Origin: Ginglymostoma cirratum
Lineage: Eukaryota
Reading direction: 5' to 3'
DNA length: 64,000 nucleotides
Assembly (NCBI GenBank): GCA_024137785.1
Contig: JAHRHZ010000218.1
Location: forward strand, 10,005,624 to 10,069,623
Made by a program: the position numbers and the translations under genes. This document shows positions 22,962-64,000 of the stretch, piece by piece (within the stretch, counting starts at the first letter, position 1; every line of letters starts with the position of its first letter). The notes under the pieces were generated by a model. The model saw nothing but the letters and a program-made list of their open reading frames with translations, had not been told where the DNA came from and did no database searches.

Positions 22962-23211
22962 GGCTCCATCCCCACCTCTGCGACTTGTCTGCCTCCTCTC
23001 CACCTATCCTCTCCTCTATCCATCCTCTATCCGCCTCCCCCCCCTCCCTATTTATTCCAGAACCCTCTTCCCCTCCCCCATTTCTGATGAAGGGTCTAGG
23101 CCCGAAACGTCAAGTTTTCCTGCTCCTATGATGCTGCTTGACCTGCTGTGTTCAATCAGCCCCACGCTTGTTATCTCGGATTCTCCAGCATCTGCATTAC
23201 CTTTTATCTCT
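22962..23211 (+). mobile_element. Penelope-type family A element: pyrimidine-rich leader, hammerhead motif and 3' tail, with a 15-bp TSD
   Basis: TSD aaaacatctgcatct at 22947-22961 and 23212-23226. Confidence 0.85.
23080..23115 (+). ncRNA. Putative minimal type-I hammerhead ribozyme (family A)
   Basis: attt CTGATGA a GGGT-ctag-GCCC GAAAC GTC aagt. The catalytic core is intact, stem II is 4 bp, stem III is the ACGU palindrome, the cleavage triplet is GUC, and stem I is AUUU/AAGU. Activity is not shown. Confidence 0.7.
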
Positions 23212-23542
23212 AAAACATCTGCATCTATCCTGTTATCCCTTAAGTATTTTGTAGGTTGCAATGAGATCACCTCTCATGTTTCAGACTCTGTAGAATGGAG
23301 GTTTAGTTTGCCAGTCTCTCTTCATAGGACAGTGCCTCTATCCAAGGAACAAGTGTAATGAATTTTCACTGCACATCTTCCTGTGGCAACAATATCTTCC
23401 CTGAGGTACAGAGACCAACACTGCACACACTACTCCATGTCTGGTCTAACCAAGCTTCTATGCAATTGAAGTAAGTCTTCACTACTCCTGTACTCAAATC
23501 CTCCTGTGTTAAAGGCAAATGTTCCATTAGCCTTCCCAACTT

Positions 23543-23829
23543 TGGTGGCTCTGTGGTGAGTACTGCTGCCTCACAGCACCAGGGACCCAGGTTCAATTCC
23601 ACCCTCGGGCAACTGTCTGTGTGGAATTTGCACATTCTCTCCATGTTTGCGTGGGTTTCCTCCAGGTGCTCCAGTTTCCTGTCACAGTCCAAAGATGTGC
23701 AGGCTGGGTGGATTGGCCATGGGAAATAATGCAGGGTCATAAGGATGGGTGGGATGCCATTTTGAGTGTTGGTGTGGACTCAATGGGCTGAATAACCTGC
23801 CTCCACACTGTAGGGATTCAATGATTCTA
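23543..23829 (+). mobile_element. tRNA-derived SINE (HE1/V-SINE-like)
   Basis: Same head (gcctcacagcaccagggacccaggttcaattcc), core and gtagggattc tail as 11244-11548. Confidence 0.87.
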
Positions 23830-24255
23830 AGATACTCTGCACATCTGTTCCTCCAGGCCAAAATGGATAACATTTTTCCACATATTCCATTTACTAAATT
23901 CTCACCCACTCATTAAACCTATCCAAAACCTCCTGAAACTACTTTATATCTTCCTCATAACAATCACTCCTGCTTAGGTTGTAATATATACAAACTTGGA
24001 AATATCACATTGGCCCCCATGCCCAAATCAGTAATATATTTTGAACAGCTATGATCCAAGTACTGATCTTTGCAATACCCGGCTAGTTACAGTCTACGAA
24101 GACAAGAATAACCCATTTAATCCTTAATGGTTTCTGTCTGTCAGGCAATCCTCAAACCAAAACAGTACAATACCTCCAATTCGATGTGTTTTCATTTTGC
24201 TAACCGATCTTATCGAGAGTCTTCTGAAAATTTAAGTATACTACATCCATAGACT

Positions 24256-24786
24256 AAACAAAAAAACCAAAGAACCGCAGATGCTGGAAATCAGACTGTT
24301 GACCCAGATAACTGTCCGAGGCCATGGCAGATGGTGGAATTTGAATTCAATAAAATATCTGGAATTACGAGTCAAATGATGCCTGTGAATCCGCTGCCAG
24401 TTGTCAGGAAAAACCCATCTGATTCACTAATCTCCTTTAGGGAAGGAATCTGCCATCCTTACCTTGTCTGGCCTACATGTGACTCCAGATTCACAGCAAT
24501 GTGGTTGAACTGCCCTCTGAGCAATTAGGGGTGGGCAATAAATGCTCCCTAGCCAGTGATGCCCTCATCCCGTTAATGAATAAAGAAACAAAATCAGAAA
24601 TTGCTGAAAAAACTCAGCAGGTGTGGCAGCATCTGTGGAGAGAAAGCAGAGTTAATGTTTCGGGTCTAGTGAACCTTCTTCAAGGAGGTTCTGAAGAAGG
24701 GTCACTGAGCCTGAAAGGTTAACTCTGCTTTCTCTCCACAGATGCTACCACACCTGCTGAATTTTTCCAGCAATTTTTAATTTTGT
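24256..24786 (-). mobile_element. Penelope-type family B fold-back element (about 95-bp inverted arms at 24587-24787) with a 14-bp TSD and a nested SINE
   Basis: TSD tacatccatagact at 24242-24255 and 24787-24800. Arms aacaaaatcagaaattgctg...gagaaagcagagttaa and ttaactctgctttctc...cagcaatttttaattttgtt. A degenerate hammerhead core is present in each arm. Confidence 0.85.
24296..24586 (+). mobile_element. 5'-truncated SINE with a LINE-derived tail, nested in the family B element
   Basis: cccatctgattcactaatctcctttagggaagga...gcaattaggggtgggcaataaatgct...aatgaataaa. A reverse-complement relative lies at 41625-41920, and the tail resembles the LINE ends at 12500-12562 and 31610-31680. Confidence 0.7.
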
Positions 24787-26276
24787 TACATCCATAGACT
24801 CCTCCTTGTAAAGTTTGTTAATAACATCCTCAAAAAATTCCAGCAAATTTGTCAATCATGATTTTCTATTTGCAAATCTATGCTGACTGTGCCCAGTCAG
24901 ATCATTTTCATTTAGTGACCATTTATCACATCCTTCATCATGGACTAAATTATTCCCCCTACTGCTGATGCGAGGTTGATCAGTTGTGCTTCCCTGTTTT
25001 CTCCTTTCTTAAATAGTGGGGTGATATTTGCTGGCTTCCAATCTGCAGGAATATTCCAAATTCCAATGTTCATCCACTGTTTATTCCAATGCAAATCCAG
25101 TGTTTAGTAAATATATCCCATAATACCAGTCATCAGCTTTCTCATGGACTGTTATTCAAAATATGCTAGCTAGTGAGGCTTACTTTTTAATCAACTGTAT
25201 GTCATGAGATATCAGATTGTAGCTAGCTAGCATGAAACTAGCGACACCAGACGCCATGAAAGGAGCTTAATTTTCCATTGCAGTCATGAACCCGGTATGC
25301 TATACACTTAATTCTCATGGCAAATCTTAACATTTTTAAAGAACAATATACTATTTTGCCTTGTTAGACTATTTTTCATTGGCATTGTTATCTCCATCTT
25401 ATGGTTGTACAGATCACTAAAGTTTTGATGTGAAGGTTAGAATCATTAAAGCAAAGTATTTATAATTCATCACTGGAATGTCTCATCTTAAATGTCCAAT
25501 CAGATGAGATTCTAATTTCCATTTCGTAAGGAAATGAATGCACCCACATGTGATTTTAACATGTGTTATTCAACAATTGATTTTATGCCCATCTTGTTAA
25601 TTGAAAGCATGCTGGCTTTTTACAGGTACTGACCACATTGTCATAGTTATCACTGTTTACAGTTAGGATTTAAGAGTAAAAATGTGGGATGAATTTATTC
25701 TGCTCAGAATGGTTTCATACCAATAATTCTGAATTTGGAAAATGTCAACCTAAATTTCTGTTACATATACTGATAGACCTCCCTTCTATTTATAGCCTTT
25801 GTTCACTGAGCATTGTCATAATGGTTTTACAAAGTCGTTGATTGTTTGAAAAGTAATTCAAGTCTCCAAAGGCTTTATGTCTATTATGTTTATAAACCAA
25901 GATTTTCTCAGTCCATAGTCAGACCACAAACTCAATCAGTGCAATGATAATCGACTTTTTCCAAACCCTACTCTTTGGACTTGGGTATTTTGCATTGGTG
26001 TGCCACGTAATGCAATGAGTGACAAGCATATAAGACCAAGAATGTAAGCAAATGGTGATATAATTTTGCTAAAGATTACTATATTGTGACATTATTCACT
26101 AGTTCCATTCATGCAAATGCTCGTGACTGGAAACAGCTGATATTGGCTGTTGAGATTCAGATCATTTTCCAATTAGAAACATCTGATAGGATTGCTTTAT
26201 CTTTTAAATGCTTTTTAACATAACTATGTATCAATTAACAGACTCCTAATGTCTTCCCTGTTTGTACTATACACAG

Positions 26277-29200
26277 GTTCATTTGTGTTTGCAGTGACAG
26301 TTTCAGATGACGATGAAGGCCCCAATGCAGAACTCCAGTATTCCTTGACAGGAAGAAATGTGGAAAGATTCCAGATTGATCCAAGTCGTGGTGCTATCAT
26401 GGCTGCACAGAAGCTAACTGGAGGCACTGACATAACTATTACTGTCAATGTTAAAGACAGAGGAATGTATCCAATGTCAGACTCCACCACTGTGACAGTG
26501 AGATTTGGAAATGAAGTTGATTTTCCTCAAATAAATGCAGGGCAACAGTCTTTTACTTTCCCGGAAGACCAAAAGATTGATACCTACATTACAACAGTGT
26601 CAGCTTCGTCAAAAAGAAGCCCTGTAAGAGGGTCATTATCTTACTATATTGCCAGTGGTAACCTCGGTGATGTCTTCCACATTGATCAACTTACAGGGAA
26701 ACTTGTTCTCAAAAAATCATTAGATTTTGAAGCTGTTCAGAAGTATGTCTTGTGGATTGAAGCCAGAGATATGGGGTACCCTCCCTATTCTTCCTATAAG
26801 CAATTGAATATCACTGTGCTAGATGTCAATGACAACGCACCAGTTTTTAAGCAGAATCCTTTCATGGCTAATGTAATGGAGAATACCTTCTCACACAAAA
26901 TAATCACTGTCGTAGCAGAAGATAAGGACAGTGGTCCTAGTGGCCAAATAGAGTATACTATACTGGATGGTAACAGAGGCAATAATTTCAATATCAACAG
27001 AGAAACTGGGGAGATCAGAAATACCAAACGTTTGGATAGAGAAAAGGAGGCCCAGTATACATTAACTGTACAAGCAACAGATAAAGGACCTTCCTCAAGT
27101 AGCTCTGTGTGTCGTGTCATCGTCAACGTCTTGGATGAAAATGATAATGCCCCAAGATTCTCTCAGATATTTAGTGCTCAGGTGTCTGAAAATGCTGCTA
27201 TTGGCTACACTGTGACACGTGTTACCACTTCAGATGAGGACACTGGAGTGAATGCTGTTAGTCAGTACTCCATACGAGATGTAAGTCTTCCCTTCTCTAT
27301 AAATGCAAAGACCGGAGATATCACAGTTAGCAGGCCTCTGAATCGGGAGGACGTGGAGCGCTACACAGTCAAAGTTTATGCCCATGATTCTGGGTGGACA
27401 GTGAATACAGACATTACTGTTTTTGTGACAGATGTAAATGATAATGCCCCACGATTTACTCAACCCTCGTACTATCTTGATTACCCAGAAGTCACTGAGA
27501 TTGGGTCCAGTGTTACTCAGGTAGTAGCTACAGATCCCGACAATGGCCTTAATGGTCAAGTGTTTTACTTCATAAAATCACAGTCAGAATTCTTCCGAAT
27601 AAATTCCAGTACAGGAGAGGTCTATACCAAACAATACATAAAATATCACAATTCCTCAGGTTCTAACAATCTGAATATAAACAGGCATAGTTTTATTATA
27701 ACAGCCTCAGACAGAGGTAGAATTCCCTTGATGAGTGAAACTACAGTCATTATCAACATTGTGGACAGTAATGACAATGCACCACAGTTTGAATCTGAAA
27801 ACTACTTTACTCCTGTTACTAAGAATGTCAAGGTTGGTACAAGGTTAATCAAAGTCACTGCAGTGGATGATAAGGATTACAACTTAAATTCGGAAATAGA
27901 GTACCACATTACTGGTGGAAACAGTTCAAACCTATTCACACTGAACAAGAATAATGGTTGGGTTTCCGTTGCTTCCACTCTGAGAGCCAATGTGAATAAA
28001 GTGTTTTTAATCATAATCACAGCAATGGATAAAGGCAATCCCCCACTGTCTGCAACATCCACTGTTCGTATTTTGGTAACTGAAGAGAATTTGCACGCGC
28101 CTCAATTCTCTCAGAGCCACATTAGCATCATAGTTCCTGAAAGCCTTGCCATTGGAACAGTAATCAGAACTGTTTCAGCCAGAGATAAAGATGCTGATAT
28201 GAATGGGTTAATCAGATATAACATTTCTAAAGGAAATGATGCTAAATTGTTCTCTATCATTAATACAACGGGTGCAATATCTCTAGCTGGCCACTTGGAC
28301 TATGAGACTCAACAAATGCATGAACTGACCATAAGTGCTGAAGATGGTGGTTGGGTGAAAAGAGCTGGCTACCTAAGTGTGACCATTCACATCACTGATT
28401 CCAATGATAATTCACCACTGTTCAGCCCAGATGAGTATTTTCCAACTATATCAGAAAATGCCCCGAGTGGTACCACTGTTGTTCAGTTAAATGCTACCGA
28501 TGCAGATTCTGGAGCTAACGCTGTGATAGCTTATGCAATTGAGAGGAGTGACAGTGACCTTTTTGTCATTGATCCAAACACTGGAGTCATCACAACTCAA
28601 GGATTTTTAGACTTTGAAGTAAAACAGAGTTATCAGATGTATGTGAAAGCGTTTAATGTCCCAGATGAAGACCACTTTAGCTTTGCCAATGTTTATGTGC
28701 AGCTCAGTGGTGTAAATGAGTACGTTCCACGTTTTGTGTCCAGACAGTATAGCTTTGAGGTTTCAGAGGCTGCTTCAAAAGGTACAACTGTCGGGGAAGT
28801 ATTTGCCAGTGATCGAGACCTTGGGAATGATGGAGTTGTCACCTACCTCCTTGTTGGTAAAAGCGGAAGCAAAGGATTAAGAATTGATAAAAACACCGGA
28901 CAAATTTATGTATCCGGGCAACTTGATCGGGAAAAGGAAGAGAAAATTTCTTTGAGGGTTCTGGCTAAGAATGCTGGAAGTATCCGTGGATTTGATGTTG
29001 ACGAAGTCTTTGTAAATATTACTATACTGGATGCCAATGATCCTCCTGTTTTTACATCTGAGGAGTACAATGTGCAGATTAATGAGGGAGCAGCACCTGG
29101 GGCTCATGTCATTTTCGTAAGTGCCTTTGATTCTGACTCAGTTCCCAGTTGGAGCAGATTCACTTACCACATTGGAGCTGGAAATGAAAAGGGTGCCTTT

Positions 29201-30635
29201 TCTATTGACTCTCAGACTGGGCAGGTTTCAGTGGCAGCAGAACTGGATCGTGAGTCCATACCCATATATAACCTCTCTATATTAGCTGTTGATTCAGGAG
29301 TGCCTTCAGCCACAGGTAGCACCTATTTACTTGTCAACCTGGAGGATATTAACGACAATGGACCTACTTTAGTATCTACAACTGGAGAAGTTGTGGAGAA
29401 CCAACGTGCAGGGGCTATTGTGATGACACTTAATGCCACTGATCCAGACCTTCCACCAAACCAAGGTCCTTTCACCTACTATTTGCTCAGCACAGGCCCT
29501 GCTACCAGCTACTTCAGTTTAAGCTCTGGGGGTATCCTCACAACAACCAGAGAAATTGACAGGGAGCAGATCAGCGATTTCCACTTGTCAGTGGTCACTC
29601 GGGATTCTGGCACTCCGCAGATGTCTTCCACAAGTACTGTACATGTCATAATAAATGATCAGAATGACAACCCATCTGAGCCCAGAACAGTGGAGATATT
29701 TGTTCACTATTTTGGAAACCTGTTTCCTGGTGGAGCCTTGGCCAGTGTGAAGCCCCAAGATCCAGATATATTGGACACTTTCCAGTGCACTTTGACTATG
29801 GGGTCTACCACTCTTTTTAACATCCCAGCAGGTACTTGCAATCTAAATTCCCAGCCAAGGTCAACAGATGGAACTTTTGATCTAATTGTCCGTAGTAGTG
29901 ATGGATTGCACAGTGCGGTCAACAACAATGTCCATGTATTCTTCACAGGATTCAATAATGCGACTATAGACAATAGTGTCCTTCTTTCCCTAAATATTGC
30001 AACAGTGAAAGATTTTCTCACCAACCATTACCTACACTTCCTACGGATTGTTAACTCTCAACTGTCACAAATGGGAACTGCAGTACAGATCTACGGGTTT
30101 TATGAACAGGATGAAAAAACATATATAATGGCAGCTGTGAAACGATTTAGCAATCAGTATGTAAGTACCAGTGGGGTAGCCACTTTTTTTGAAAGCATTA
30201 AGGAAACATTATTCAGACAGAGTGGAGTACGAATTGATTCCGTGGACCATGACCCTTGCACTAACGAGCCATGTCAGAATGGTGGAAGCTGTGTGAAGAG
30301 ACTTGCTGTAAGCCCATCATTACAAAGTGAGGAAAGCGTCCCAGTGATCATTGTGGCCAACGCAGCTCTCAAACCATTCATCTGTCGATGTCTACCAGGA
30401 TACTCTGGACATGCCTGTGAAACTGACATAGATGAGTGTCTTCCATCCCCTTGCCACAATGGTGGAACCTGCCATAATTTATTAAGTAGATTTTCATGTA
30501 CCTGCCTGGAAGGGTTTATGGGCACTGCTTGTGAAAGGGACATTAATGAATGTCAGTCGAATCCCTGCAAAAATGGTGGAACTTGCCAGAATTTCCCAGG
30601 AGGTTTTAGCTGTGCGTGTAAAGCTGGATATACAG
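26277..30635 (+). CDS. FAT4: FAT4 giant coding exon (4359 nt): about 11 C-terminal cadherin repeats, linker and three EGF-like repeats
   Basis: Lies within ORF 26249-30805. Acceptor atacacag|gt at 26276/7, donor acag|gtattg at 30635/6. Repeated DxNDNxPxF, LDRE/LDFE and AxDxD motifs, followed by EGF repeats (DIDECLPSPCHNGGTCHNL, DINECQSNPCKNGGTCQNF). Segments such as NLNINRHSFI and VHYFGNLFPGG are recognisable as vertebrate FAT4. Confidence 0.96.
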
Positions 30636-31147
30636 GTATTGAATGCAGGAATCCTCTTTTAATATTTCACTCAAGGATTGTTTATATTAAATGCATTAAT
30701 TACTTCAAATCAGAAATAGCCATTAAGATTTTTCAATATTTGTTTAAAATAACAATAACACTGAGAAATATGTTCTGGGCAGTTGACAGGACCGTTGTGC
30801 TGTAGTAAGAGACCTTCAGATACAAACCTACACAGTCAAATGGTTAATTCCTCATTAAACCAGTAAGGGAACATACCAAACCTAAGCAAGGTATCTACCG
30901 CAAGGAAAAGTAGAAAAGGCATCATCCTGGCCACCCTTACACAAATCCATAAGATGGTCGTGAGAGTCTCTGGTACATTAAAAGCTGTCCAAATAGAAAG
31001 TTACCTGAATTATCTCAATGGAGTAATTGTGGTTACAATTGAATGATAAGTTGCTGACTATTGCCCACATAATAGCTTTCAACTTATATTGAGTTCTGTT
31101 CTGTCAACAAGAATCCAAGTAAACAACAAAGATAGCAGAAATAATAC

Positions 31148-31320
31148 AAACATAAAATATTGCAGAAGCTGAAAATTTGAACCGAGAACAATAAAAGCTG
31201 GAGAACCTCAACAGGAGAGGCAGGATCTGTGGAGAAGTCATCGACCTGAAAAATTAGCTCTGCTTCTTTCCACAGATGCTGCCTGACCTGATAAGTTTTT
31301 CCAGCTTTATTTTTTCCTTT
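31148..31320 (-). mobile_element. Older, internally deleted family B-like fold-back element
   Basis: aaagctggagaacctcaacaggagaggcaggatctgtggagaag and cttctttccacagatgctgcctgacctgataagtttttccagcttt form imperfect inverted arms similar to 24587-24787. Confidence 0.65.
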
Positions 31321-31504
31321 ATTAGGAAAAAACAGCTGTCATCTCAGGTTGCTGTTACATTCCTGCTACTCCTGGTTATAAAACAGCATTAACAAAAACC
31401 TGTGTGTCAAATTGTACAGCACTAGGGATTGTACAATGATAATAGCAATGCCTAAAGTGAGCTGCTTCTTTTGCAGCGAGCTTGGTATAGTCTTTTGAAT
31501 TCAA

Positions 31505-33300: not shown

Positions 33301-34651
33301 AAATTTCCTTTTTGCTTTGACTATTCATTTTTGAACATTCATAAATTGAGCCTCAATACAGAGTGCAATATTTATGCTCTCATAGCGAATTTGGAGACAG
33401 TGAGGGCATTTAATCATGATGGTGATTCTACCACCTTTCTGTGTCTGCCCTGATACAGTCCATGGACAGCTTTCCCACACCATTCCTGTGTTAATACAGA
33501 TTGTTAGTAAACAGTTAATGTAAAATTAAAAGCTTCAACCCACTTTAACTGCTGGTCACCATGGTTTGCAAGTTGATTGTTGTCTCCCGTGTTCAAACCA
33601 CTCAATGCGTCAATAAGGGACACAGCATTGGGAAAGTGGCCAGGGTGCCGTTTCTTTCTCGCAGCAATCACCATTTTGTTGGTGATGATGCAGAGCAGCA
33701 GAAAGAGTGGCAGCTCTCAGCAGGTGAAACTTTTGACATTGAAGTGCTTGATCCCAGTGAAAGAACACACCATGGATCTTTCCGTGGCTCAAAAGTCAAT
33801 GGATGAGAACCCATTCCACCACAAAAAGACCCCAGGATCTTTGTTGCCTATTGAAATATGTGCACTTCCTTTAATTTTGGTAATTTTAAACTTTTTTTAT
33901 GCTTGACACTTTATTTATGGGTTAAAATTATATACATCATCAACCACGTGTAACTATGATGTTATTTTTGCACCACTTGTTGTCGTAAAACTCATTCTTA
34001 TCCAAATTTTGTTTCATATAATTTCCATCATAACCCATCTGTCATGATTAAATGATTAATTTAGCAAAAGTAAAAACAAAAATTTATTTGAGATTCAGGT
34101 AAAATGTGGACAGAGGAAAGGGAGGTTTTGACATTCTAGTTGCCTTTCCATACCATTTTATTATCTCACCTCAGAATAAGTCCTTGAAAGTTAACCTTAA
34201 GGGTTGGTGACTCTGATCCTTAATTATCACCAAGACCCCTCAGTTGGATGTTTAAGATGGTTCGTAGTACTCTTCACAGTGCCATGTAGGTTTGAGCTGC
34301 AACTGGAAGATTCAAAATCTAGCCTTAGATTACCCTCTACTGGCTTCTCCTGGCATTGTTTGTGGCTTCTCCGTTCCCACCCCCACATCCAATGTGGCCA
34401 GATTTCCCATCAGGTTTTCTTAGCCAAGTCTTCAGCAATTTGCAACTTCAACTTTCCTTCTTCGTAACTCAATCCCAGCAGCTCTGTCACTGCAATCTCT
34501 CATCTGAACTAATAAAAACTGATTTTATAAGTGTTTGAAAAGTCCTGCTGGTTTTTAGCTGGAAGCTTAGCATTGGATATTGCAAAGAAGAGGGTGTCTT
34601 TTGAAGGGTGGCACAGTGACCCAGTGGTTAGCATCGTTGCCTCACAGCACC

Positions 34652-34863
34652 GAGATGTGGAGGTGCCAGCGTTGGACTGCGATAGACAAAGTCAGAAGTC
34701 ACACGACATCAGGTTATAGCCCAACAGGTTTATTAGAAATCACAAGCTTTCTGAGCACTGCTCCTTCATCAGGTGAAGTGCTACACGTGACGAAGGGGCA
34801 GCACTTCAAAAGCTTCTTATTTCTAATAAACCTGTTGGACTTTAACTTGGTGTCATGTGACTT
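34652..34863 (-). mobile_element. Penelope-type family C fold-back element with hammerhead motifs and an 11-bp TSD
   Basis: TSD ctcacagcacc at 34641-34651 and 34864-34874. Inverted arms agaagtcacacgacatcaggttatagcccaacaggtttattagaaat and atttctaataaacctgttggactttaacttggtgtcatgtgacttct. Confidence 0.85.
34741..34775 (-). ncRNA. Putative minimal hammerhead ribozyme (family C)
   Basis: Minus strand reads cac CTGATGA a GGAGC-agt-GCTCa GAAAGCTT gtg. Stem I is CAC/GUG, stem III is the AGCU palindrome, and there is one mismatch at the base of stem II. Confidence 0.62.
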
Positions 34864-35220
34864 CTCACAGCACCAAGGACCTGGGTTTGATTCCAGCCTC
34901 AGGCGACTGTCTGGAGTTTGAGCATTCGCCCTGTGTCTGCGTGGGTTTCCACAGGGTGCTCCGGTTTCTTCCCACAGTTGAATGATGTGCAGGCTAGTTG
35001 GGTTGGCCATGCTAAATTGCCCATAATGTCCAGGGATTAGCCATGGGAAATGAGATTTATAGAGGTACAGTCAGCAGCTAGGTCTGGTTGGGATACTGTT
35101 CAGAGGGTCGGTGCAGACTCGATAGGCTAAATGACCCCTTCTAGCAGTAGAGGGATTCTATGAGTCTAAGTGATGGGGGCAGACATGAAGTAGATGGAAC
35201 ATTTATTGAATTTTTGAATT

Positions 35221-35350
35221 TTCTGAAGAAGGGTCTAGGCCCGAAACGTCAGCCTTCCTGTTCCTCTGATGCTGCTTGGCCTGCTGTGTTCATCCAGCTC
35301 TACACCTTGGTATCTCAGACTCTCCAGCATCTGCAGTTCCTACAATCCCC
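35221..35350 (+). mobile_element. Penelope-type family A copy beginning at its hammerhead motif (CTGAAGA variant)
   Basis: tt CTGAAGA a GGGTCTAGGCCC GAAACGTC agcc...gatgctgcttggcctgctgtgttcatccagctc...ccagcatctgcag. Confidence 0.82.
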
Positions 35351-36351: not shown

Positions 36352-36430
36352 GGAGGCATGGTGGCACAGTGGTTGACACCAGTGCCTCACAGCACCAGGG
36401 ACCTGGGTTTGATTCCAGTCGGGCAACTGT
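36352..36430 (+). mobile_element. Truncated tRNA-like head of an HE1/V-SINE-like element
   Basis: ggtggcacagtggttgacaccagtgcctcacagcaccagggacctgggtttgattccagtcgggcaactgt. Confidence 0.75.
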
Positions 36431-39609: not shown

Positions 39610-40884
39610 AGAGTTGGCAGAGAGACAGACCCTTCAGTCCAACTCGTCCATGCTGACCAAGTTCCCCAAACTAAATTAGTCCCATTTGCTTGCTTTTGTC
39701 CCATATCCCTCTAAACATTTCCTATTCCTGTACCTGTCCGAATGTCTTCTAAATGTTCTAACTGTACCTGCATCCGTCACTTCTTCAGGCAGTTTATTCT
39801 ACATATGAACCACCCACTGTGTGGAAAAAGTTGCCCCTCAGGTCCCTTTTAGTTCTTTCTCCACTCCCGTTTAAAATATGTCCTGTAGTTTTGAAGTGCC
39901 CAACCCTAGAGAAAAGACCTCTGCTGTTCACCTTATCTATGCCCCTCATGATTTTATAAACCTCTATAAGGTCACCCCTCAACCTCCTACAGTCCAGTGA
40001 AAAAGGTCCCAGTCTATGCTTATAACTCAAACCATCCAGTCCCAGCAACAACCCTTGTAAATTTTTTTTCTGAATCCTCTTCTAATATCCTTCCTATCAC
40101 AGGGCAACTAGAACTGTATACAGTACTCCAAAAGGCCTCACCAATGTCCTGTACAAATGTAATATGATGCCCCAACTCCTACACCCAATGATCTGAACAA
40201 TGAAGGCAAGCATGGTAAATACCTTCTTAACCACCCTGTCTACCTGTGATTCAGCTTTCAAAGAACTAATGACCAAAAGATAGATAAGGGCAGAATTGTA
40301 GATATTAGCTATATGGACTTCAGTAAAGCCTGTGGCAAGGTTCAGCATGGTAGACATGTTGGTAAAGTTATATCACATGGAATTCAGGGAGACCTTGCCA
40401 ATTGGATACAAAATTGACTTGATGGTAGGAGACAGAGAGTGTTGGTGGAGAACTGTTTCTCGGACTGAAGACCTGTGGCCAGAGGTGTTTCGCAGGGATT
40501 AGTGCTAGGTCCACGATTGTTTGTCATTTATGTAAATGATTTGGATGAGAATTTAAGAAGGATGGTTAGTAAGTTTGTGGATGACACCAAAATTGGTGGT
40601 TCACTGGACAGTGAAGGTTATCCAAGGTTACAAAGTGATCACGATCAATTGGGCCAGTGGGCTGAGGAGTGGCAGATGAAGTTTAATCTGGATAAATGCA
40701 AGATGTTACATTTTGGTAAGACAAACAAGGGCAAGACTTATACAGTTGATGGTAGGGCCCTGGGTAGTGTTGTTGAAAAGAGAGACCCAGGGGTCAGGTG
40801 TATAGTTCTTTGAAAGCTATGTCGCAGGTGGACAGGGTGGTTGAGAAGACATTTAGCACGCTTGCCTTCATTGCTCAGACCATT
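39610..40884 (-). mobile_element. CR1 LINE with an inverted 5' segment (39610-40270 minus, 40275-40884 plus)
   Basis: Minus ORFs include RRLRGDLIEVYKIMRGIDKV. Plus ORF 40475-40813 reads GVSQGLVLGPRLFVIYVNDLD...SKFVDDTKIGG...WAEEWQMKFNLDKC. Confidence 0.85.
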
Positions 40885-41920: not shown

Positions 41921-42021
41921 GACTTAATTTCAGCAACTCTTCACTAATGATTCTTTAAGCAGTGGGCAAGACCTCTGTTGCAGACATTAAATTCTGCCAA
42001 CTGAATCTATAGCATCTATGT

Positions 42022-42588
42022 TAACAAGCATGGGGCTGGATGAACACAGCAGGTCAAGCAGCATCATAGGAGCAGGAAAACTTGACNNNNNNNNNNNNNN
42101 NNNNNNNNNNNNNNNNNNNNNNNNNNNNNNNNNNNNNNNNNNNNNNNNNNNNNNNNNNNNNNNNNNNNNNNNNNNNNNNNNNNNNNNNNNNNNNNNNNNN
42201 NNNNNNNNNNNNNNNNNNNNNNNNNNNNNNNNNNNNNNNNNNNNNNNNNNNNNNNNNNNNNNNNNNNNNNNNNNNNNNNNNNNNNNNNNNNNNNNNNNNN
42301 NNNNNNNNNNNNNNNNNNNNNNNNNNNNNNNNNNNNNNNNNNNNNNNNNNNNNNNNNNNNNNNNNNNNNNNNNNNNNNNNNNNNNNNNNNNNNNNNNNNN
42401 NNNNNNNNNNNNNNNNNNNNNNNNNNNNNNNNNNNNNNNNNNNNNNNNNNNNNNNNNNNNNNNNNNNNNNNNNNNNNNNNNNNNNNGTCAAGTTTTCCTG
42501 CTCCTATGATGCTGCTTGACCTGCTGTGTTCATCCAGCCCCATGCTTGTTATCTCGGATTCTCCAGCATCTGCAGTACCTTTTATCTC
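42022..42588 (+). mobile_element. Penelope-type family A fold-back element spanning an assembly gap, with a 15-bp TSD
   Basis: TSD ctatagcatctatgt at 42007-42021 and 42589-42603. 42022-42086 is the exact reverse complement of 42487-42551. Confidence 0.88.
42087..42486. other. Assembly gap (400 N)
   Basis: Run of N. Confidence 1.
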
Positions 42589-45515: not shown

Positions 45516-45523
45516 TAGAGCAG

Positions 45524-45764
45524 TTTGAATATTGCTGAAAAAGGAGACATGGCGCTGAAGCGTTTCATCTTTCTTTCATCTGGATTTATCATGGTGATGA
45601 CAAAGTTAATCGGAAATGACTTGCTAACCAATTAGCATCTTTTCCTAACATAGTACAGATTGTTGTAATTGTTTGAAATGTTTTGGCATTCTTGCATTTG
45701 TTCTGATGAGTGCAAAGTGAAAAAGTTTTGGAAATGTGTCTTATTTTGCAACAATGTTCAAGTT
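45524..45764. mobile_element. Old fold-back element (family E) with a degenerate hammerhead-like core
   Basis: The left arm tttgaatattgctgaaaaaggagacat...tttcatctttctttcatctgga is an imperfect reverse complement of ttctgatgagtgcaaagtgaaaaag...atgtgtcttattttgcaacaatgttcaag. Confidence 0.55.
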
Positions 45765-49537: not shown

Positions 49538-49790
49538 TTAACCTATTTTTCTAATCAACCTGCCTCAGAGATGTTATTACGTCTCTGAGCAAGCAAGACG
49601 TGAACCTGGGCCTCCTGATCCAGGAGTAGGGATACTACCACTGTACCACAGGAGGGTCTTTTTTAAAAATTAACCTATTTTTCTAATCAACCTGTTCAGA
49701 AATGTTATTACATACCTCCAGAACAAGTGGAATTTGAACCCAGACCTTCTGGTAGGGGTAGGGATGCTACCACTGCTTCACAAGATGGGA
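49538..49790 (-). repeat. Tandem dimer of a roughly 120-bp tRNA-derived element
   Basis: Two units start ttaacctatttttctaatcaacctg (49538 and 49670). The minus strand has an A-box-like tgtggtacagtggtag and B-box-like ggttcacgtc / ggttcaaattcc. Confidence 0.75.
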
Positions 49791-53327: not shown

Positions 53328-53454
53328 ATAACAAGATGTAGAGCTGGATGAACACAGCAGGCCAAGCAGCATCAGAGGAGCAGGAAAGCTGTGTTCATCC
53401 AGCTCTACACCTTGTTATCGCAGATTCTCCAGCATCTGCAGTTCATACTATCTC
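53328..53454 (+). mobile_element. Penelope-type family A short fold-back element with an 11-bp TSD
   Basis: TSD tgatgaccatc at 53311-53321 and 53455-53465. Arms ataacaagatgtagagctggatgaacacagc and gctgtgttcatccagctctacaccttgttat. Confidence 0.85.
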
Positions 53455-53829
53455 TGATGACCATCTCTTCCTGCTTTATCTGCAATACCAGCAGTGGCTG
53501 CTGCAGTGCACAGTGTTGTGTGAGTGCTGGCCAATTCTGGCAGATCTATGAGGTGAAACTTGCTCTTCGAGGCACAGGGAGGTCCTGCCTCATATAGTGC
53601 TGTGTTTTATTTGCTCTTCTTTGACAATTGCTCTGTTGATTTCCATCGGTGCCATGTACCAGATTTTAAATAGGGGAATTCAATAATCATATGATAATAA
53701 TTAATTTATATGTTTCAAATTAAGGATTGTTTTGTCAGCAGTTTTCCAAAAGTTATTAATTCATTGAATGTGGATATCATTGGCTAGGCCAGAATTCATT
53801 GGCCATCTCTAATTACCCTGGGGAACCAT

Positions 53830-53936
53830 GATGTGGAGGTGCCAGGGTTGGACTGGGGAGGACAGGGTCAGAGGTCACATGACACCGGGTTATAGTCCAA
53901 CAGGTTTATTCAAAATTTCAAGCTTTCAGAGCGCTG
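53830..53936 (-). mobile_element. Penelope-type family C truncated copy
   Basis: gatgtggaggtgccagggttggactg...caacaggtttatt...caagctttcagagcgctg matches 34654-34760 and breaks inside hammerhead stem II. Confidence 0.8.
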
Positions 53937-55421: not shown

Positions 55422-58400
55422 CTTACCAACGTCCTGGGATCCACGAACAATACTAATCCTTGGGTGAGTATTCTACTGACAGCAACCACTGCCTCACTGG
55501 TCATACTGTCACTCAATCAGAGCTGCTGGGCCCTAGTTGGTCAGCTGTTCCCAGCAGATGGGACTTCTGCCGTCTTGATGCTAAGAAAGGTCCCATGTCA
55601 TCCAATTTAATGTCTTCCTTAGAAGAGACGTTACCTCAACACACCCCACTCCCCTTCCAAAAATAGCGTTTTAATTGAACACGGTTTTTTTATTGATAGC
55701 TTTTGTACAATGTAGCTTGCCTCTTAGTTTACCAGACACCTTAACCAACAGTTTATGCATTGTATTGCACAAATTGAATTTCAGATTGTTACCCTATCCA
55801 TCTCTGTGCTTTCGAAAATCTACTTTCACACATTTAGTAGAAGGTGCATAGTAATAAACTCAATGAGATAAATGTTCAAAAAGTTAATGAAACTTCACAA
55901 CTGAAGTTGACTTTGCACTGTTGCAGCCCTAAATCAATAACAGGCTGTCACTCAAGGTGGCATTAACAACGCTCCATCTTAGTTAGAGAACACTTAATAT
56001 GTTCCTGTGCTGAAAGAATTAAAAGAAATTCAGAGCGTAAAAAACAGTTACAATAATAGATTGTCAGTTATTCAACATGCAGGCTTGTTTGAGCTAACGA
56101 AATATGTCAGCACATGGTATGTAATGGGAAATAAATTGTGGAGATTGCACAGGGAACTTAAGCAGCATTCTGTTATAAGTGCTGAGAGAAATCAGTTTTA
56201 AGCTTAGAAAATTCTGGAGATGTATATATAACATAAAACTGTCATGTTAAAAGTTTTCACTGTTTATGCAATTCTTTAAATGCTGAACAAATACAACTAA
56301 AGACTTCAGTCATAGACCAGTTTGTTGAAGCAAAGACCAGCTGATTTCAATTATAACTTCAGCACATTCTGTGTGCTTTACCAGAGCTGGATAGGCTGCT
56401 CAGATTGAACCTGATGACCTTTCTGTCTTTATAGTTAGGAGTTTCCAAAAGTGTAATGTTTAGATTAGGTTTTGTTTTCAAATGGTTTTATATTTATTGG
56501 CAATAGGAACATTTTCCTATTTCACAATCAGTGTATAATACCACTTAGCATTGACAATCTTGCAACACAGAGTCAGATCTGCATCAAAACTCAAAACCTT
56601 TAAAGATATACAAAGAATATCAGGATTTGAATGTCAAAAACAATTTTATATTTACAAATTACACAGCTACTACCATAAAACCCGATATTTTCAGAAGTAT
56701 TACGTAGAATGGAGTAAAAAATTCAAAATAATCTGAATATTAAAGTTTCATTTAAGTATATTAAGAAATTGTTCACGTCATAAGAGACATTGCAAACTGT
56801 TCACACCATTCATGATTTTATAAATATTATATATACACATGTTTTATATGTTTATAATTTTAGTTATTAAGCAAAATAGAAGACATGTACTGTTCCACAT
56901 TGTTTGCCCATCTCTGTATATAAGTTTAAATGTAACTGGAGGTAATAATTTGACTTACTGAAATTAATTGGGGATGCAATTGGACTTTAATAATCCTATG
57001 AAATGGGCTTACAGTGAATCAACAATCTGTTTTACGCCAGACACAGTTTTCATTATACACAGAAAACAGGCTCCTAATTCACTAGAAGCCTGTTTTGCTC
57101 TGCTAACATAGACCAATTTCACCCCCATTGTTTCCAATTTTCCATGCACAATTAACTTGAAATATTATGAAAATTGAAAGCAGTTTCGGTCTTTTTGAAT
57201 TGCAAACATTGGAATGTCTTCTGTGGGAAATGGTTAAAAATATGGTCAAACTGCACAAAGCTAAACTACGTTTCTTTTGACTAGGTGGCATCTCTCACAG
57301 TAGACTCATGTTCTGAAGATCAGGATGCTGGTTACTGCACAGCAACCAGCTTGACGTCAGCAACTGATTGGTAAGATTTCCTCTTGCAGCCGCTGCAAGG
57401 TTAGATGTGTTATGACAAGAAAAACAAAGGTGAGGTTGCAAGAACCTAATAGCTAGCTATATCACTACGTTCCTACTGTTACTTATAAAACCCCTGTACT
57501 TATCAAATATTGGATATTGAATCTGCAACAAAAAATGGCCACAGTTCTGCCAAGAAGACCAGCGAGGGTACCGAGGACCTGAGTAATGGATGACAAACTC
57601 AGCAAAATCTGGAACATAAATGTTCTATCTGCATGGCCTCATTTGAGTAAATGTTTACAGAGTCTCACATGACCAGATTGACATAGCCAGTGACTGGACA
57701 GTCAATGGACATCACATTGGGAGGGACAGACCAGCGTTTTCTCTTGATTGAAAATGGAAGAATGTCAGAGTTTCCTTTTTGTGATAAATGATGATGAGGA
57801 TGTTGATACTCTGGGTTCCTGAAAATCATTTGGTACTGGTTTCGGAGACCCAAGGTTCTCTTAAAGGCATGACATGAGAATTCCTGCTCCTCCAGGTCTA
57901 CAAAGAGTTCAAAGACAAAGTTTAAAAGCTTACCTGCCTCTTTCTAGTCCATCACTTCCTTCTGCATCTTTGCTGTTGTTAACCAACACACAACATGGGA
58001 GGTCTCCCAGTAGAGGACTCAAAATTATTTTGCAATGCCAATGATATCGTTGAACTACAACTTTTAAATCTTAAGTAACTTTGGTGTGCTTTTAGTGTTT
58101 ACTTCATCTAGGGCTTGAATCTCATCTGAACCATCAATATTATGATGAGAAAATTTCAGAAGCTTTTGGAATTGAGAATTCAAATTTTAGGATTTTAACG
58201 CCTTGTCCAACTCACTACTGCTATTCTGGACAGAGTGGCGAGGGAGAGAAGATGGTGGAAAGTGTTAAAGTTTGGCTGTGAAGTCAGCACAGCAAACCTA
58301 AGGATACATTTAGTTCTGCGAGAGTTAATACTCATCCCATAGCAATTGGAATGACGATACAAATTGTTTGGTCCTCATGCAGAGTAAATTTTTTTTAGAT

Positions 58401-58540
58401 GTTTTCTAATGCATTTAAAAATCAATTTTGTTTAGAATCTGGGATTTTTGTAAAGAGAGAAATAATTGGAATACCACTGGAAAGTGAGGGCAAACATTTA
58501 GTTTCCCACAATAAGCAGATCATCAAATTACCCAGAAAGT

Positions 58541-58573
58541 GATTCTCCAGCATCTGCAGTACCTTTTATCTCT
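58541..58573 (+). mobile_element. Extreme 3' tip of family A
   Basis: gattctccagcatctgcagtaccttttatctct is identical to the tail of 61257-61347. Confidence 0.75.
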
Positions 58574-59389
58574 CTCAACTACATTTTCCAACTGGCTAGT
58601 TAGGATTTGAGACCTAGGTTTGCACCCAGTTCAGTTTGACGGTATCTCATCTTCTTTGTCCGACAGCTGTTAAGAGTTTGATGTCAAATAAATTTGACAG
58701 TAAAAATATTATTTGTAGTCAAACCATGCTTATGAAACTATCTCAAATATTGTTAATTGACAGTAATTCAACATTTCATTTGAAGATAGCCTGAGTAACA
58801 TTTTCTGAGTATGACCATTAGAAATCTGATGCATCGCAGTGGAGCAGTCAAGTTCTTTTGTGTGTGGAGCACCCACACTGACTTTGTAGCTGACACTGTA
58901 GTTAGACTGTGTGACAATCAATGGCAGTACCGCATCAGGCAAGTTCAAGTACAAAGGCTGAGCTGTTGGCTGAACAGAAAAATAGAAACAGTAAACACTG
59001 ATGATGTATGACAAATGAACAAACGTGAAAAAAAGTGAACAACTTAATACTGGATGCTTTGTCAGGCTATTTGGCAGATGAACTTTTCTTGCTTCACTAA
59101 GAAAGAAATAGTATACGAAGTTTTATTTTTACAAATCGAATCATATGTTAAGAGCATTCAAGTGCATAACTTTCTATTTATGGATACAGCTCATACTAAT
59201 GGGTGAGCCGCCTGCAGAGTTAATTGAGCATGTCTCTGGAGTAAGTTGGCTGTCGGCACACCTCTAGTTCTGATGTGCCATATTTCAAAAGACTTCGGAA
59301 AAGAGAATTGCAAAACAAATGGAAAATCAATATGTGTTTGCTTGCTGACAAAAATTCATAGTTTCTAACTTTCTAAGGCAGCTCGGTCA

Positions 59390-59760
59390 TGATGGACTCT
59401 TGCCTCAAAGGCAGAAAATCATGAGGTTATGTCCAATTACAAACAGTTGAGCAAATATACTAGGCTTTTACTTCAGTGTTACTAAGAGAGTGCTTGGAGG
59501 TGCTGGCTTTTGAATAAGACATCAAGCTGAGAGGCATATCTGACCTATGAGACATTTCTGCTGTCTTGGCTGTGTATAAAAAATCGCATATCATTGTTTT
59601 GAATAAGGTGAGGAGTGCTCTGACTTGACAATATTAGTCAATTAATCAACAGATTATCTGATCATGAAATTGCTGTTTCTGGGACTTTGCTGGGTGAAAA
59701 CTGGCTCCTGTGTTTCCTACATTACAGCCATGACTAAAGTAATTAATGACTGTTAAACTC
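59390..59760 (+). mobile_element. DeuSINE-like element, degraded
   Basis: gactcttgcctc...taggcttttacttcagtgttactaagagagtgct...cagattatctgatcatgaaattgctgtttctgggactttgctg...tgtttcctacattacagc, similar to 18385-18775. Confidence 0.65.
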
Positions 59761-60912
59761 TCGCACTCCTGGGTTCTTTGCGTAACAATTTTTTGAGTCA
59801 GAAACCATCTCTTTTTCCAATGTTAGGATACAATAGATACAACCTTGCTAGAACAGGCCATTGTCATGCACATGCCAATAATTAGACTTTTTCCAGCATC
59901 ATTCTACTGAAAATATTTTACTGCTCTTATTATCTGGAAGTGCAAGCTGATATTGTGAGATGAAGGCAACAGGACATCTGAGATCTTATTGGGTAGTGGA
60001 ACCAACAGTTCATCTCCTTAATGAGATTTGGCAAATAAGAAATGAGAATTTACAGTGAAAGAATGTAGAGTCAGTGAATTAAATTTAAATCAATTACAGA
60101 AGGAGAAATATAGAGAATAAAAGGAGAGAAAGGAAAAGTAAGAAATATGTTTTAAAATGTCATTTTGATAAGCATTTCTTTATGCCGGAAAAGGATTGAC
60201 AAATAAATTCTTGCTTTTCTAGGCCCAAGAAGTTGACTGGCACGATATTAACAATAGTCATGTTATTATTACTTGCACTTCAAATTATAAGCCATGACTT
60301 CCTGTGATGTTCTTAAAGTAGTCAGAGACCCGTGGTTAAGATTTTACTTTCACACTGCAAACAGAATGGCGCAAGCCTAACATCAAGTTCTGGAGATTCT
60401 TAGCTTTTGGTACATCCCCTTAATTTGTTCACTATTTTGTGTCATAATAATGGTGCATCATTAATATATCAGTATTTTTCAGCAACAGCTGCTTTCAACA
60501 GTTGTCATCTAGGCAGACTTTGATCTGTTGGCAAATAACATTTGACTTTTGCCATTAGTACATTTTATTGAATATTTAGTTTGTTCAAATAATAAGAAAC
60601 TATTTGTGTGCTTTTTTTCAGTTCAATTTAGAATATCACACGTAACTACCAGCATGGTATTGCGACCTAAAGTTCAGTGCATGATTTTTAAGGACACTGC
60701 AATTCCACTATTGAAATAGCTTAAAGAGAAAACAGATTGTTTTGTTTATTTTGCGGAATGTAATGGGTAACGATGAGGTACAATGCAGTCATTTAATTGA
60801 ATAGGCTAATTACAATGCCTATGAGAATGAATACCATTAAGGTTTAGAGTAGATTTGTAGCTCGGATTGAGGATATAGTGGTTGGTTGGCTCGCCGAGCT
60901 GGTTCATTGTTC

Positions 60913-60954
60913 TGCAGACATTTCATTACCCTGCTGGGTAACATCATCAGTGCA
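60913..60954 (-). ncRNA. Putative minimal type-I hammerhead ribozyme in the Penelope pLTR (family D)
   Basis: Minus strand: tgca CTGATGA t GTTACCC-agca-GGGTAAT GAAA TGTC tgca. Stem I is 4 bp, stem II is 7 bp, and the triplet is GUC. The sister copy at 61675-61705 retains GAAACGTC. Confidence 0.75.
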
Positions 60955-61616
60955 TCCTCCGATGAAGCTCTGTTGTATTTTCCCACTTGTTATGTAAACT
61001 CTGGAGCCCGTTGAGCTGGGTTACCTCACTTCCGGATTTTCTTTGCAATAGAGTGTATATGGGGTCTAGCTGTATGTGTTGATTGATGGCTTTCTTAGTG
61101 GAGCACCAGACTTCTAGGAATTCCCATGCTTGTCTCTGCTTTGCCTGTCCCAGGATCCTAGTGTTGTCCCAATTGAACCGGTGGTTTTCCTTATCCATGT
61201 GGATGGAGATGAATGAGTATTCATCATGTCTTTTTGTTGCCAGTTAATGTTCATGTCCTGCTCCTACGATGCTGCTTGACCTGCTGTGTTCATCCAGCCC
61301 CATGCTTGTTATCCGGATTCTCCAGCATCTGCAGTACCTTTTATCTCTAATGTTCATGTACTGTTGTGGCTAATTTCCTTCCTGTCTGTCCAATGTAATG
61401 TTTGTCACAGTCTTTACAGGGAACCTTGTATATGACATTGGTCCTGTCCATAGTGGGTAGCGGGTCTTTGGTTTGGATTAGCAGTTGGCGTAGGGTTGAT
61501 GTGGGTTTGTGTGCTACTCTGATGTCCAGTGGTTGTAGGAGTCTTGTGTTCCTGATGTAAGATAGCGTGATGAGTGTGTCGGGGCGTGCAGTATCTTCTT
61601 GGTGTTGTTCATGCAA
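60947..61616 (-). pseudogene. Penelope ORF C-terminus (end of RT thumb/linker plus GIY-YIG endonuclease), disrupted
   Basis: ORFs 61347-61616 and 60947-61198 join in frame after removing the 61257-61347 insertion and one TSD copy: VHEH*LATKRHDEYSFISIHMDK. Confidence 0.88.
61257..61347 (+). mobile_element. Family A 3' fragment inserted into the GIY-YIG ORF, with a 12-bp TSD
   Basis: TSD taatgttcatgt at 61245-61256 and 61348-61359. Confidence 0.9.
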
Positions 61617-64000
61617 TAAGCATCTTCTGACCCAGTTCTTCGGGTATCCGACAACAGGTCAGATGATAACCCCCGATGTTACTCAGCAGGGTAATGAAAC
61701 GTCTGCGGAACGACAAACCAGCTCGGCGAGCCAACCAACCACAAAAATGATTGCCTTTAAAGTTTGAATAAGTATGCACTGACGTAGAAATTCCTTGAGT
61801 TCCCTTCATCTCACGCTGAAATTTGTCACGAGATTGTCAGAAATTTCCAGCCACCAAAAAACGTCAGTGTTTCTGTTCTGCCATTTAAAGTGATGGTGAG
61901 AAATTAAGAAGTATTCCTGTGAAATTTCATGGACTATGTGTCTATTTTACAGTGAAGGTTCCCAAGCTGAACAGTGCTAGCAGGGGAAGGCAGTACCCTC
62001 ACCAGTGGATGGTTGCAATCCACTGAAGTGTGGAACTTGTTGCTCTTTCCTGCTACTATTGGGGCATGATGCTAATGGGAGCCACTGACAGTTATTGGGG
62101 ATTGTGCTTCAGTGATGTGGTGACATGTTGGAGGTCAAGCTGTGTTAAAGCTGCAATGTAGGGATTCACAGAGCTGTGGCACAAGTGGTTACGCTTCTGT
62201 ATTAACCTGTCAGAGGGGATGACGACATCAATGACTGAAATAGCAGTCACACATCAAGTCACACGCAATGAATAGGCCATGTAGTGTGAAAATCCCTGGA
62301 GAGTGTTCCTGCTGTTGTTTATCTACTTGCTGCTGCTCCACTGTGGCATGTGGTGGCAGGGCCGACTCACCACTGGGACAGCTTCGATTCCAGCAGAACA
62401 TGCTATAATTAATCTCAATAAATGTCTCAACACTATAAGTACCTAGATTTTCATGTTTGCTCTTGCAGGACAGTGTTATTCTTACTAATAATGCCGTAGC
62501 ATTCTTCCCAAAGATTGAGATTTCAATTCCTGTGATGGTTACATCATTACTACGAAATTAAAACATTCTTTTTTAAACAGAACATACAAGGCAGAGCTTT
62601 CAATTTTCTGGGAATCATGGCCCTTGAGGTCAGAAGGCCAGCCTACCATAAAATACCAGCCAATCCAAGACTGCTGTCTCTTCAAGGGATCCATTAAGTG
62701 ACCCATGAAGAAAAATGGTTTGTATAGGAACTACTTGTCAGTCACCCATGATTTGCTGCACCATGTAGTCATCCAATGACACACAGGGTCTCAAAGTTTG
62801 TGTCCGCAGAGTTTATGTTCCAGTAGCGTTTGAAAGCTGACACTGATAGCTGGCATTGTTAATCTAATACTGAATTCTATTTGCAGCACAGAAACAGTTC
62901 TTTGAGACGAATAGGTTAATGCCAGTGCTTATGCTCCATATCACATCTTCGAATAAGAATTCATTCGCTTACTTAGCTCCAATACAAGCTAATTTAATAT
63001 AAGAACCAAACTTCCTATCTGGTTATCTTTTGAGTTGTTCCCTTTTCCAATGAATTTGTACATATATATATATGCAATGGTGCCTCTGCTTTTACTTCCC
63101 TGATCTCTTCTCATATGTGTGAATGCAATACATCTGGATCTTTCTAGGGTAGATTGGTTTATCTGTTATGTCCCTCTTTTATAGCTGAAATGTCTTTGCA
63201 TCTGTTCTGAATTTTTCTTATAATTGCACCCATAATCCTAGTTCCACTAGTAAATACTAAAACAATGTTTTTTGCCATTTTATTCTCATTACCTGTGAGC
63301 ATAACATCGAAATTGATTTGAAGCTATCCATATCCTGATTTTCCTTTTGTTATTTAAATATCTACAGAATTTTTCATATTTTTTGATAATTCATTTTGAT
63401 ACTTTCTCTTTGCCTTTATTTCCAAATCTTCCAATTTTCCAAATGGCAGTCTCTTCTTTGTTCTTTGTGTATGTTCTCCTTCAATTTTAATTTTACCCTG
63501 TTTTTATTCATTCACGCATTATTGTTCACTAGATTTTTTTCTTGCTTTTTAATGGGACGTATTTATCTTGTACTGTTTCAATAATTTCTAAAGGTTTCCC
63601 ATTGCTGCTCCATGTCTTTGCTTGTCAGCAAATATCTGTTACATTCAGTTGCAGTTACATTCTCCTCTCCTTGAAATCAGTTTCTTTTGGTCTTCATTTT
63701 ACTTCTATCCTTCTCAGTCTTTTTCTTAGCTCTTATTATGTTATGATCGCTATTGCCTTAATACTTCCCGAAGCTTACTTGTTTTATGTAATCTAATTAA
63801 TTTTCCATTATGCTTCTGTATGTAAATTGTTAGCACCTTGAATTTAGGCTAATATTTGAACATCACCTGGTGTTCAAATGATACCCAGCAACCAGCAACC
63901 AAATGAAAAGTAGTAGACAAGAATAAACAACATTTTTTGTGCAAACTGATTTTAAGAAGTTTAAGCTATTTTTAACGGAAACCAATTAAACCAAATCTCA

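Follow-up and report, generated by a model that had tools for sequence, protein, structure and literature searches.

What are the short repeats with a hammerhead ribozyme core that lie scattered along a giant cadherin gene of the shark Ginglymostoma cirratum, and how did they come to be there? The question arose from a preliminary description of a window of 64,000 nucleotides (GenBank assembly GCA_024137785.1, contig JAHRHZ010000218.1, positions 10,005,624 to 10,069,623 of the forward strand), in which four families (A to D) and a weaker fifth one (E) were regarded as distinct hammerhead-bearing mini-elements of the Penelope type. All counts given here refer to this single 64-kb window and to both of its strands. 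According to our analysis, the families A to D are most likely dead insertions, either 5'-truncated copies or solo pseudo-long terminal repeats (pLTRs), that stem from Penelope-like elements (PLEs) with an endonuclease, of which about three lineages are represented. This reading follows from shared 3' ends, ragged 5' ends, target site duplications (TSDs), inverted pairs of copies, a tail on one side only, the minimal hammerhead and, in family D, the remnant of a GIY-YIG endonuclease.

Inventory and insertion anatomy

Copies were collected by self-comparison and profile searches, and loci are named here by family and first position. Twelve loci with 18 arms were found, seven of A, two each of B and C and one of D (Table 1). 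Of the arms, 13 belong to A/B, three to C (profile searches) and two to D (self-comparison). Family A, which had been noticed at two sites, is thus present at seven loci, most of them without a hammerhead, and some A pairs are 94-98% identical. Self-comparison and profile searches revealed that A aligns with B downstream of the hammerhead. Because of this shared sequence the two families must be considered related; A to D are all real, but they represent about three lineages rather than four distinct families. Both core boxes, intact or mutated, are present in 7 of the 18 arms, while the whole hammerhead is missing in 11. In such copies, whose 5' ends are in addition ragged, the fixed structure implied by the earlier term mini-elements is not evident.

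Table 1. Positions of the repeat copies and the main host exon in the window (first letter = 1; ORF, open reading frame; nt, nucleotides)
Feature	Position	Strand	Structure	TSD
A, longest copy	22962..23211	+	leader of 122 nt, rich in pyrimidines; minimal hammerhead with C3 at 23084 and cut predicted after 23111; pLTR part downstream of it; 38-nt tail 23174-23211	15 bp, 22947-22961 and 23212-23226
A, second subfamily	35220..35347	+	begins 3 nt 5' of C3 (35223); perfect descriptor match, stem I 2 bp	looked for, not found
A, inverted pair	42022..42588	.	flanks gap of 400 N (42087-42486); tail on right arm alone	15 bp
A, inverted pair	53328..53455	.	without hammerhead core; tail on right arm alone	11 bp
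A, copy without hammerhead	61256..61348	+	inside endonuclease ORF of D	12 bp
A, tail only	58541..58573	+	33 nt	
A, 3' part	2..86	+	cut by window edge	
B, inverted pair	24587..24787	.	arms 24587-24682 and 24692-24787, 88% complementary; damaged hammerhead in each; no tail found	not found
B, inverted pair, more decayed	31186..31316	.	right arm begins about in stem II; not in preliminary description	
C, inverted pair	34654..34863	.	minus arm with hammerhead (C3 34772) and 37-nt tail 34654-34690	11 bp
C, second copy	53830..53936	-	5' end within stem II, tail present; not in preliminary description	
D, 5'-truncated element of Penelope/Poseidon type	60846..61742	-	linker and GIY-YIG remnant (ORF ~61658-60950), hammerhead (C3 60950), tail (32-39 nt, below 60878), inverted pLTR arm 61675-61742	candidate, decayed, 20 bp, 16/20 identical (read by eye)
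E	45703..45728	+	core boxes only; rejected as hammerhead and as repeat family	not found
Host exon frame	26219..30805	+	holds the largest exon of a giant cadherin of the FAT type, which encodes 11 cadherin repeats as well as EGF domains	

The TSD test comprised 12 loci, namely 11 loci of A to D (the copy at the window edge was left out) and E. Since the boundaries were chosen after reading the sequence, the null is a generous one. Five of these loci (A22962, A42022, A53328, A61256 and C34654) are flanked by exact TSDs of 11 to 15 bp, whereas a TSD of at least 11 bp did not occur in any of about 3000 random control pairs. Inverted pairs exist at six of the 12 loci of the inventory and in all four families, and the 3' ends of the element always point outwards. 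Four of the six pairs possess a tail on one side only, with 38 nt in A (twice), 37 nt in C and 32-39 nt in D. Inverted truncated copies and a one-sided tail of 30-40 bp are described as hallmarks of PLEs (PMC8557442, PMC3846280), and TSDs are a published hallmark as well. For the element of the anole, two start sites of reverse transcriptase (RT) have been reported whose spacing equals the 30-40 nt tail (PMC11167929). Thus, TSDs, inverted arms and the one-sided tail are structural features that link A and C with PLEs even without an ORF, which corroborates the Penelope-like origin and the minimal type-I hammerhead suggested earlier. A61256 is inserted into the ORF of D and must have arrived later than D. 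C34654 is inserted into a SINE-like (short interspersed nuclear element) repeat.

The A arms have their 3' ends in common, while their 5' ends vary between positions -122 and +95, counted from C3 of the hammerhead. Fifteen arms with a readable 5' end were tallied (the edge copy and two gap-limited arms were left out). In eight of them the first base is no more than about 17 nt away from C3; another arm begins at the predicted cut site, and a further one 7 nt beyond it. Besides A35220 (Table 1), starts near the hammerhead include those of both B arms (about 10-17 nt upstream), the C arms (about -12 and -6), C53830 (+12) and the D arm (+5). These positions originate from pairwise alignments of a small number of decayed copies, and a single start at the cut site among 15 arms is within chance. 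The short arm of both inverted A pairs stops at an identical site. At A53328 the inverted arm starts at the predicted cut site, with a junction inside a 4-nt microhomology (53388-53391). At A42022 both arms stop at the gap (last letters 42086 and 42487) at mirror positions within the GUC triplet. If they were joined directly, the resulting palindrome would have ACGU of stem III at its centre. An assembly effect could be the reason for this arrangement.

Minimal hammerhead motifs

To search for hammerheads, a descriptor was designed after the published minimal motif (CUGANGA, at most one additional base, a stem II with 4 or more pairs, GAAA, a palindrome of two bases and U-H), and 100 block-wise order-2 Markov shuffles of the sequence served as chance control. 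Two perfect matches were detected, both in family A (23084 and 35223), compared to a shuffle mean of 0.01 and a maximum of 1. With at most one mismatch, D and one arm of B, the right one, were added, giving four matches against a mean of 0.27 and a maximum of 2. Strand convention aside, the motifs of A to D are located at or near the positions where they had been noticed before.

The motifs differ in their state of preservation. A (both copies on the plus strand) possesses a stem II of 4 bp including one G.U pair, the stem III sequence ACGU and C at H17. Neither arm of B24587 contains an intact hammerhead; the right arm (24691+) has AGGU at stem III, the left arm (24683-) U3 and ACAU. Hence, the B motif is a reconstruction from two arms, as the preliminary description had stated. 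In the left arm of C (C3 34772-) the core is intact and stem III is AGCU. This arm misses the descriptor solely at the pair closing stem II, G10.1.A11.1, which had been left out of the earlier account of C, while core, AGCU and stem I were confirmed. The right arm of C (34787+) exhibits G3 and A12, and again AGCU. D (C3 60950-) has a stem II of 7 bp and AUGU at stem III; its second arm (61675+) has ACGU and lacks the CUGA box. The palindrome of stem III, which had been ascribed to A to D throughout, is accordingly kept in both A, both C arms and the second D arm, whereas mutations have altered it in the main arm of D and in the two arms of B. Stem I comprises 4 bp in A23084, the right arm of B, the left arm of C and D, 2 bp in A35223, and is absent from the other arms. 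Every arm of A to D carries an extra base between positions 9 and 10.1. For the pair 10.1/11.1, A, B-left and C-right have G-C; D and B-right have G.U instead, and C-left has G.A. The fifth motif, E, had to be abandoned as a hammerhead family, since two G.U pairs are all that is available for stem II and neither a palindrome nor a second copy or TSD was found. It is one of 10 sites at which the core boxes alone occur; with 4.35 +/- 2.06 such sites (maximum 11) in 200 shuffles, the boxes by themselves are near background and constitute weak evidence. An Rfam scan, which the preliminary description had recommended, did not match any hammerhead family at E<=10.

The minimal hammerheads of metazoan PLEs reported by Cervera and De la Peña in 2014 (PMC4209133) share with A to D the CUGANGA and GAAA boxes, the extra base between 9 and 10.1, G10.1, the loop-less palindromic stem III and the short stem I. 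That paper describes mostly single dispersed motifs from truncated PLEs, thousands of them in coelacanth and Xenopus, as well as pairs on opposite strands 100-700 bp apart. Chondrichthyan motifs are absent from the 56 motifs of its Fig. S3 and from its Table S1. One element listed there (Table S1, Fig. S3) is Neptune of Acropora digitifera. In a comparison by eye over 31 bases, beginning with C3 and extending to the 3' strand of stem I, its hammerhead agrees with A35220 at 25 positions. The Acropora element and A also have a pyrimidine-rich leader in common, but this likeness is a lead only, as about half of the matched bases belong to the fixed core.

Family D and its relatives

As already noted in the preliminary description, D is the only family tied to a Penelope ORF; a GIY-YIG remnant is present in D and none could be linked to A to C. 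The ORF is split by the A insertion and interrupted by an internal stop, and it has suffered a small deletion compared with its relatives. Owing to its truncation the copy does not reach the RT, which the relatives carry. A protein search with the N-terminal fragment of D yielded 3939 proteins at E<=0.001 (best 6.7e-43). RVT_1 was detected in 8 of 12 relatives scanned and GIY-YIG in 6 of 12, the latter matches being weak and under the cut-off. Pfam gave no match for the two D fragments, nor did the C-terminal D fragment match any of the longer proteins, and a shark PLE protein had no match in prokaryotic genome contigs.

In a search starting from one D match, the named relatives were first those of the carpet sharks Chiloscyllium, Hemiscyllium, Stegostoma and Rhincodon, followed by flatworms (trematodes and cestodes). 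Identity to the named shark proteins amounts to 48-66% over the N-terminal D fragment, and that to fluke proteins to 40-51%. A recent horizontal transfer between sharks and flukes was considered and is not supported, as the latter identity is low. The Cys linker of Neptune (CX2-5CxxC) was found in none of 29 relatives with RT and endonuclease and is also absent from the translated linker of D. For this reason D belongs to the Penelope/Poseidon type. P0158 (EukProt g23113.t1) is 75% identical to both D fragments, which is above any named shark protein; it could be a shark entry or the result of a transfer. In the database proteins P0002 and P0004 a D-like endonuclease is fused with the translation of a repeat similar to A or B; both are probably artefacts of gene prediction.

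The counterpart of the hammerhead at the protein level is a T/A-E/D-D/E-V-T/S motif, which seven relatives either have at their end or read through, and two use the other frame. Thus, the motif is conserved at this position beyond the D copy. D itself has an ATG at A9-U-G10.1, 28 nt 5' of the cut site, with a 35-codon frame running through the tail. Likewise, the ORF of the anole element PAc starts at stem II, 26 bp 5' of the cut (PMC11167929). With PAc and Cercyon, D shares the lack of a Cys linker, the ATG in stem II, the tail and the inverted pLTR. Its hammerhead resembles motif 1 of Clonorchis Cercyon (PMC4209133, Fig. S3), which by eye has the same UGCA stem I and differs by one compensatory U-A/C-G pair. 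Unlike these elements, D is broken and truncated short of the RT, and in the shark sister families the end of the ORF runs into the hammerhead.

Host gene and other sequences of the window

Exons encoding cadherin, EGF and laminin-G domains were identified on the plus strand at about 8.4, 20.0, 26.3-30.7, 37.7, 51.9 and 57.3 kb, the last one ending at about 57.4 kb. Compared with these positions, the copies of A to C are located between exons. D lies 3' of the last exon found, where the laminin-G domain remains unfinished, and is therefore presumably intronic. The name FAT4 for the host gene is tentative and based on its domain order and general likeness; an Atlas look-up, which did not settle the paralogue, returned a FAT3-named cluster as second match at 0.92. 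Of the earlier placement in FAT4 introns, the intronic position of A to C thus holds, whereas the gene name and the position of D are assumed. No evidence points to a role of the insertions in the host gene.

At all seven A loci the tail-bearing arm is in sense orientation to the host gene (plus strand; p=0.016, post hoc). The tails of C and D are antisense, and for A, C and D together the sense total is 7 of 10 (p=0.34).

A SINE-like family with a tRNA-like head occurs at 11254-11548, 23545-23827, 34600-35166 and 36361-36430; it appears to resemble the shark HE1 SINE. At 40187-40884 a fragment of a CR1-like RT of a long interspersed nuclear element (LINE; 40274-40792) has 82-nt inverted arms that are 85% complementary, suggesting a LINE with an inversion. 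The tblastn match at 40274-40792 was rejected as a PLE, since the RT is of the LINE type and was matched through a chimeric protein. An inverted repeat of about 120 nt (4378-4496 and 5262-5385, 76% identical, about 770 nt apart) is possibly a decayed DNA transposon; neither a hammerhead core nor a PLE ORF was seen at 4378-5385. A tandem unit of 132 nt without hammerhead core is present in 1.8 copies at 49538-49775 (77% matches), and two copies of a 200-nt repeat, 70% identical, lie at 1277-1484 and 13891-14096. The motif at 2152-2205(-) has its boxes 37 nt apart and an ACGU palindrome, but G at H17, no stem II and no second copy, and was assigned to the background. Eleven descriptor matches with two mismatches were inspected along with it. 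Six of this set lie in or repeat A to D arms or were not followed, while the rest is without repeat context and likewise background.

Origin of the insertions

If A to D are remains of PLEs, the copies have most likely arisen as follows. The protein of an autonomous PLE would nick both strands of the target, a step for which the enzymology is carried over from PAc. RT would be primed at either of two sites of the pLTR RNA 30-40 nt apart, as observed in vitro for anole Poseidon. Copying would then halt early or reach the 5' end of the RNA, resulting in one or two short arms, and the short cDNAs, alone or as two inverted arms, would be joined to the target, flanked by its duplicated sites. The hammerhead would simply be carried along as a part of the pLTR. 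Cleavage in the parent element probably requires a dimer or the help of the element protein. Monomers of the minimal motif do not cut and dimers cut weakly (PMC4209133); the anole motif needs the element protein, and cleavage in vivo was not revealed by RNA-seq (PMC11167929). The single and mostly mutated intronic copies are probably inactive and neutral.

It is conceivable, if rather unlikely, that the short arms are full copies of a short template rather than random truncations. Priming would then take place in the tail of the 5' pLTR, and copying would proceed back to the 5' end of the RNA. Equally doubtful is that this RNA end was produced by cleavage of the hammerhead or by a transcription start a short distance upstream of it. 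Hints in this direction come from the eight of 15 starts near C3, the single cut-site start, whose microhomology could be chance, the start 7 nt further on and the gapped A pair, which would be symmetrical about the stem III palindrome provided that the gap is empty.

Several results weigh against an origin of A to D from endonuclease-bearing PLEs with minimal hammerheads. The folding z-scores of five hammerhead-bearing regions (-1.16 to 1.11) are not notable. A minimum-energy fold with stems I and II, which speaks in favour of D, was obtained for D alone. In unconstrained cofolding the copies pair via stem II and a stem III dimer was not obtained. An exact TSD of at least 8 bp was not found at seven of the 12 loci, among them both B loci and D, and both B loci lack the tail. 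Neither the window copies nor the outside searches linked an ORF to A, B or C; one of the six frames of A, a forward one, compared with longer proteins for ORF read-through, gave no match, and tblastn of D relatives against the window did not find a second PLE ORF. A scan of prokaryotic genome contigs with the A/B core motif was without match as well.

The missing ORF also leaves room for the assumption that A, B and C are non-autonomous, SINE-like parasites of PLEs with master copies of their own, whose transcripts would extend approximately from the hammerhead to the tail and which would depend on mobilisation in trans. The start of many arms is indeed close to the hammerhead, and non-autonomous PLE derivatives such as MRC1 are known (PMC8557442). 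On the other hand, A22962 extends 122 nt upstream, five A arms start at or past the cut site, and the junctions differ at every locus. Moreover, the ORF-bearing D makes similar short arms, so that a separate master is not needed, and we regard this assumption as improbable.

Far less probable still is a spread of monomers of non-LTR retrozymes via self-cleaved circular RNAs, which the term retrozyme-like in the preliminary description implied. Retrozymes, like A to C, are non-coding, hammerhead-bearing and related to pLTRs (PMC7229834; bioRxiv 10.64898/2026.07.22.740005). In the latter source they are derived from pLTRs, were reported for 1 of 1 chondrichthyan genome and also occur as dispersed monomers. 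However, according to these two sources retrozymes consist of tandem units with at least two hammerheads, and none of the four tandem arrays of the window overlaps a hammerhead. The A to C arms have ragged 5' ends and are inverted, not head-to-tail, no copy spans the region from cut site to cut site and, as mentioned, 11 of 18 arms are without the whole core. Their motifs are minimal and not of the canonical type I with a stem-loop III and loop-loop contacts. Of nine Xenopus retrozyme dimers, eight did not cut (bioRxiv 10.64898/2026.07.22.740005).

That the palindromic A, B and C loci are DNA elements similar to miniature inverted-repeat transposable elements, or microRNA hairpins with an incidental hammerhead likeness, can practically be dismissed: the arms are long and inverted, which also explains the sub-threshold microRNA matches in Rfam at B and A53328 (41.9 bits vs a cut-off of 68; 35.1 vs 94), but the same sequences also occur single-armed with TSDs (22962, 61256), which largely refutes the idea, the tail makes the arms unequal, the TSDs are not of one length but measure between 11 and 15 bp, and descriptor matches are far above chance.

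Significance

The repeats A to D are real but mostly ordinary; they are new family sequences of a known pattern, PLE pLTRs with minimal hammerheads in vertebrate genomes. They add shark examples to this pattern. The expectation that such sequences are poorly described in cartilaginous fishes is true for the hammerheads within our searches. No description of shark PLE hammerheads was found in the literature covered; Repbase and Dfam, which may well hold these families, and subscription journals lie outside this coverage. The expectation is not true for the elements as such, since an intronic Penelope expansion has been reported for the whale shark (10.1101/443036) and retrozymes for one chondrichthyan. 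The practical value of the window lies in a young and dense set of copies whose junctions can be read. Mapping the 5' ends of such copies throughout the genome could show whether the hammerheads of PLEs cut in vivo. If the short arms should prove to be full copies of a short template, cleavage by PLE hammerheads in vivo would have left a fossil record in the very many copies of sharks.

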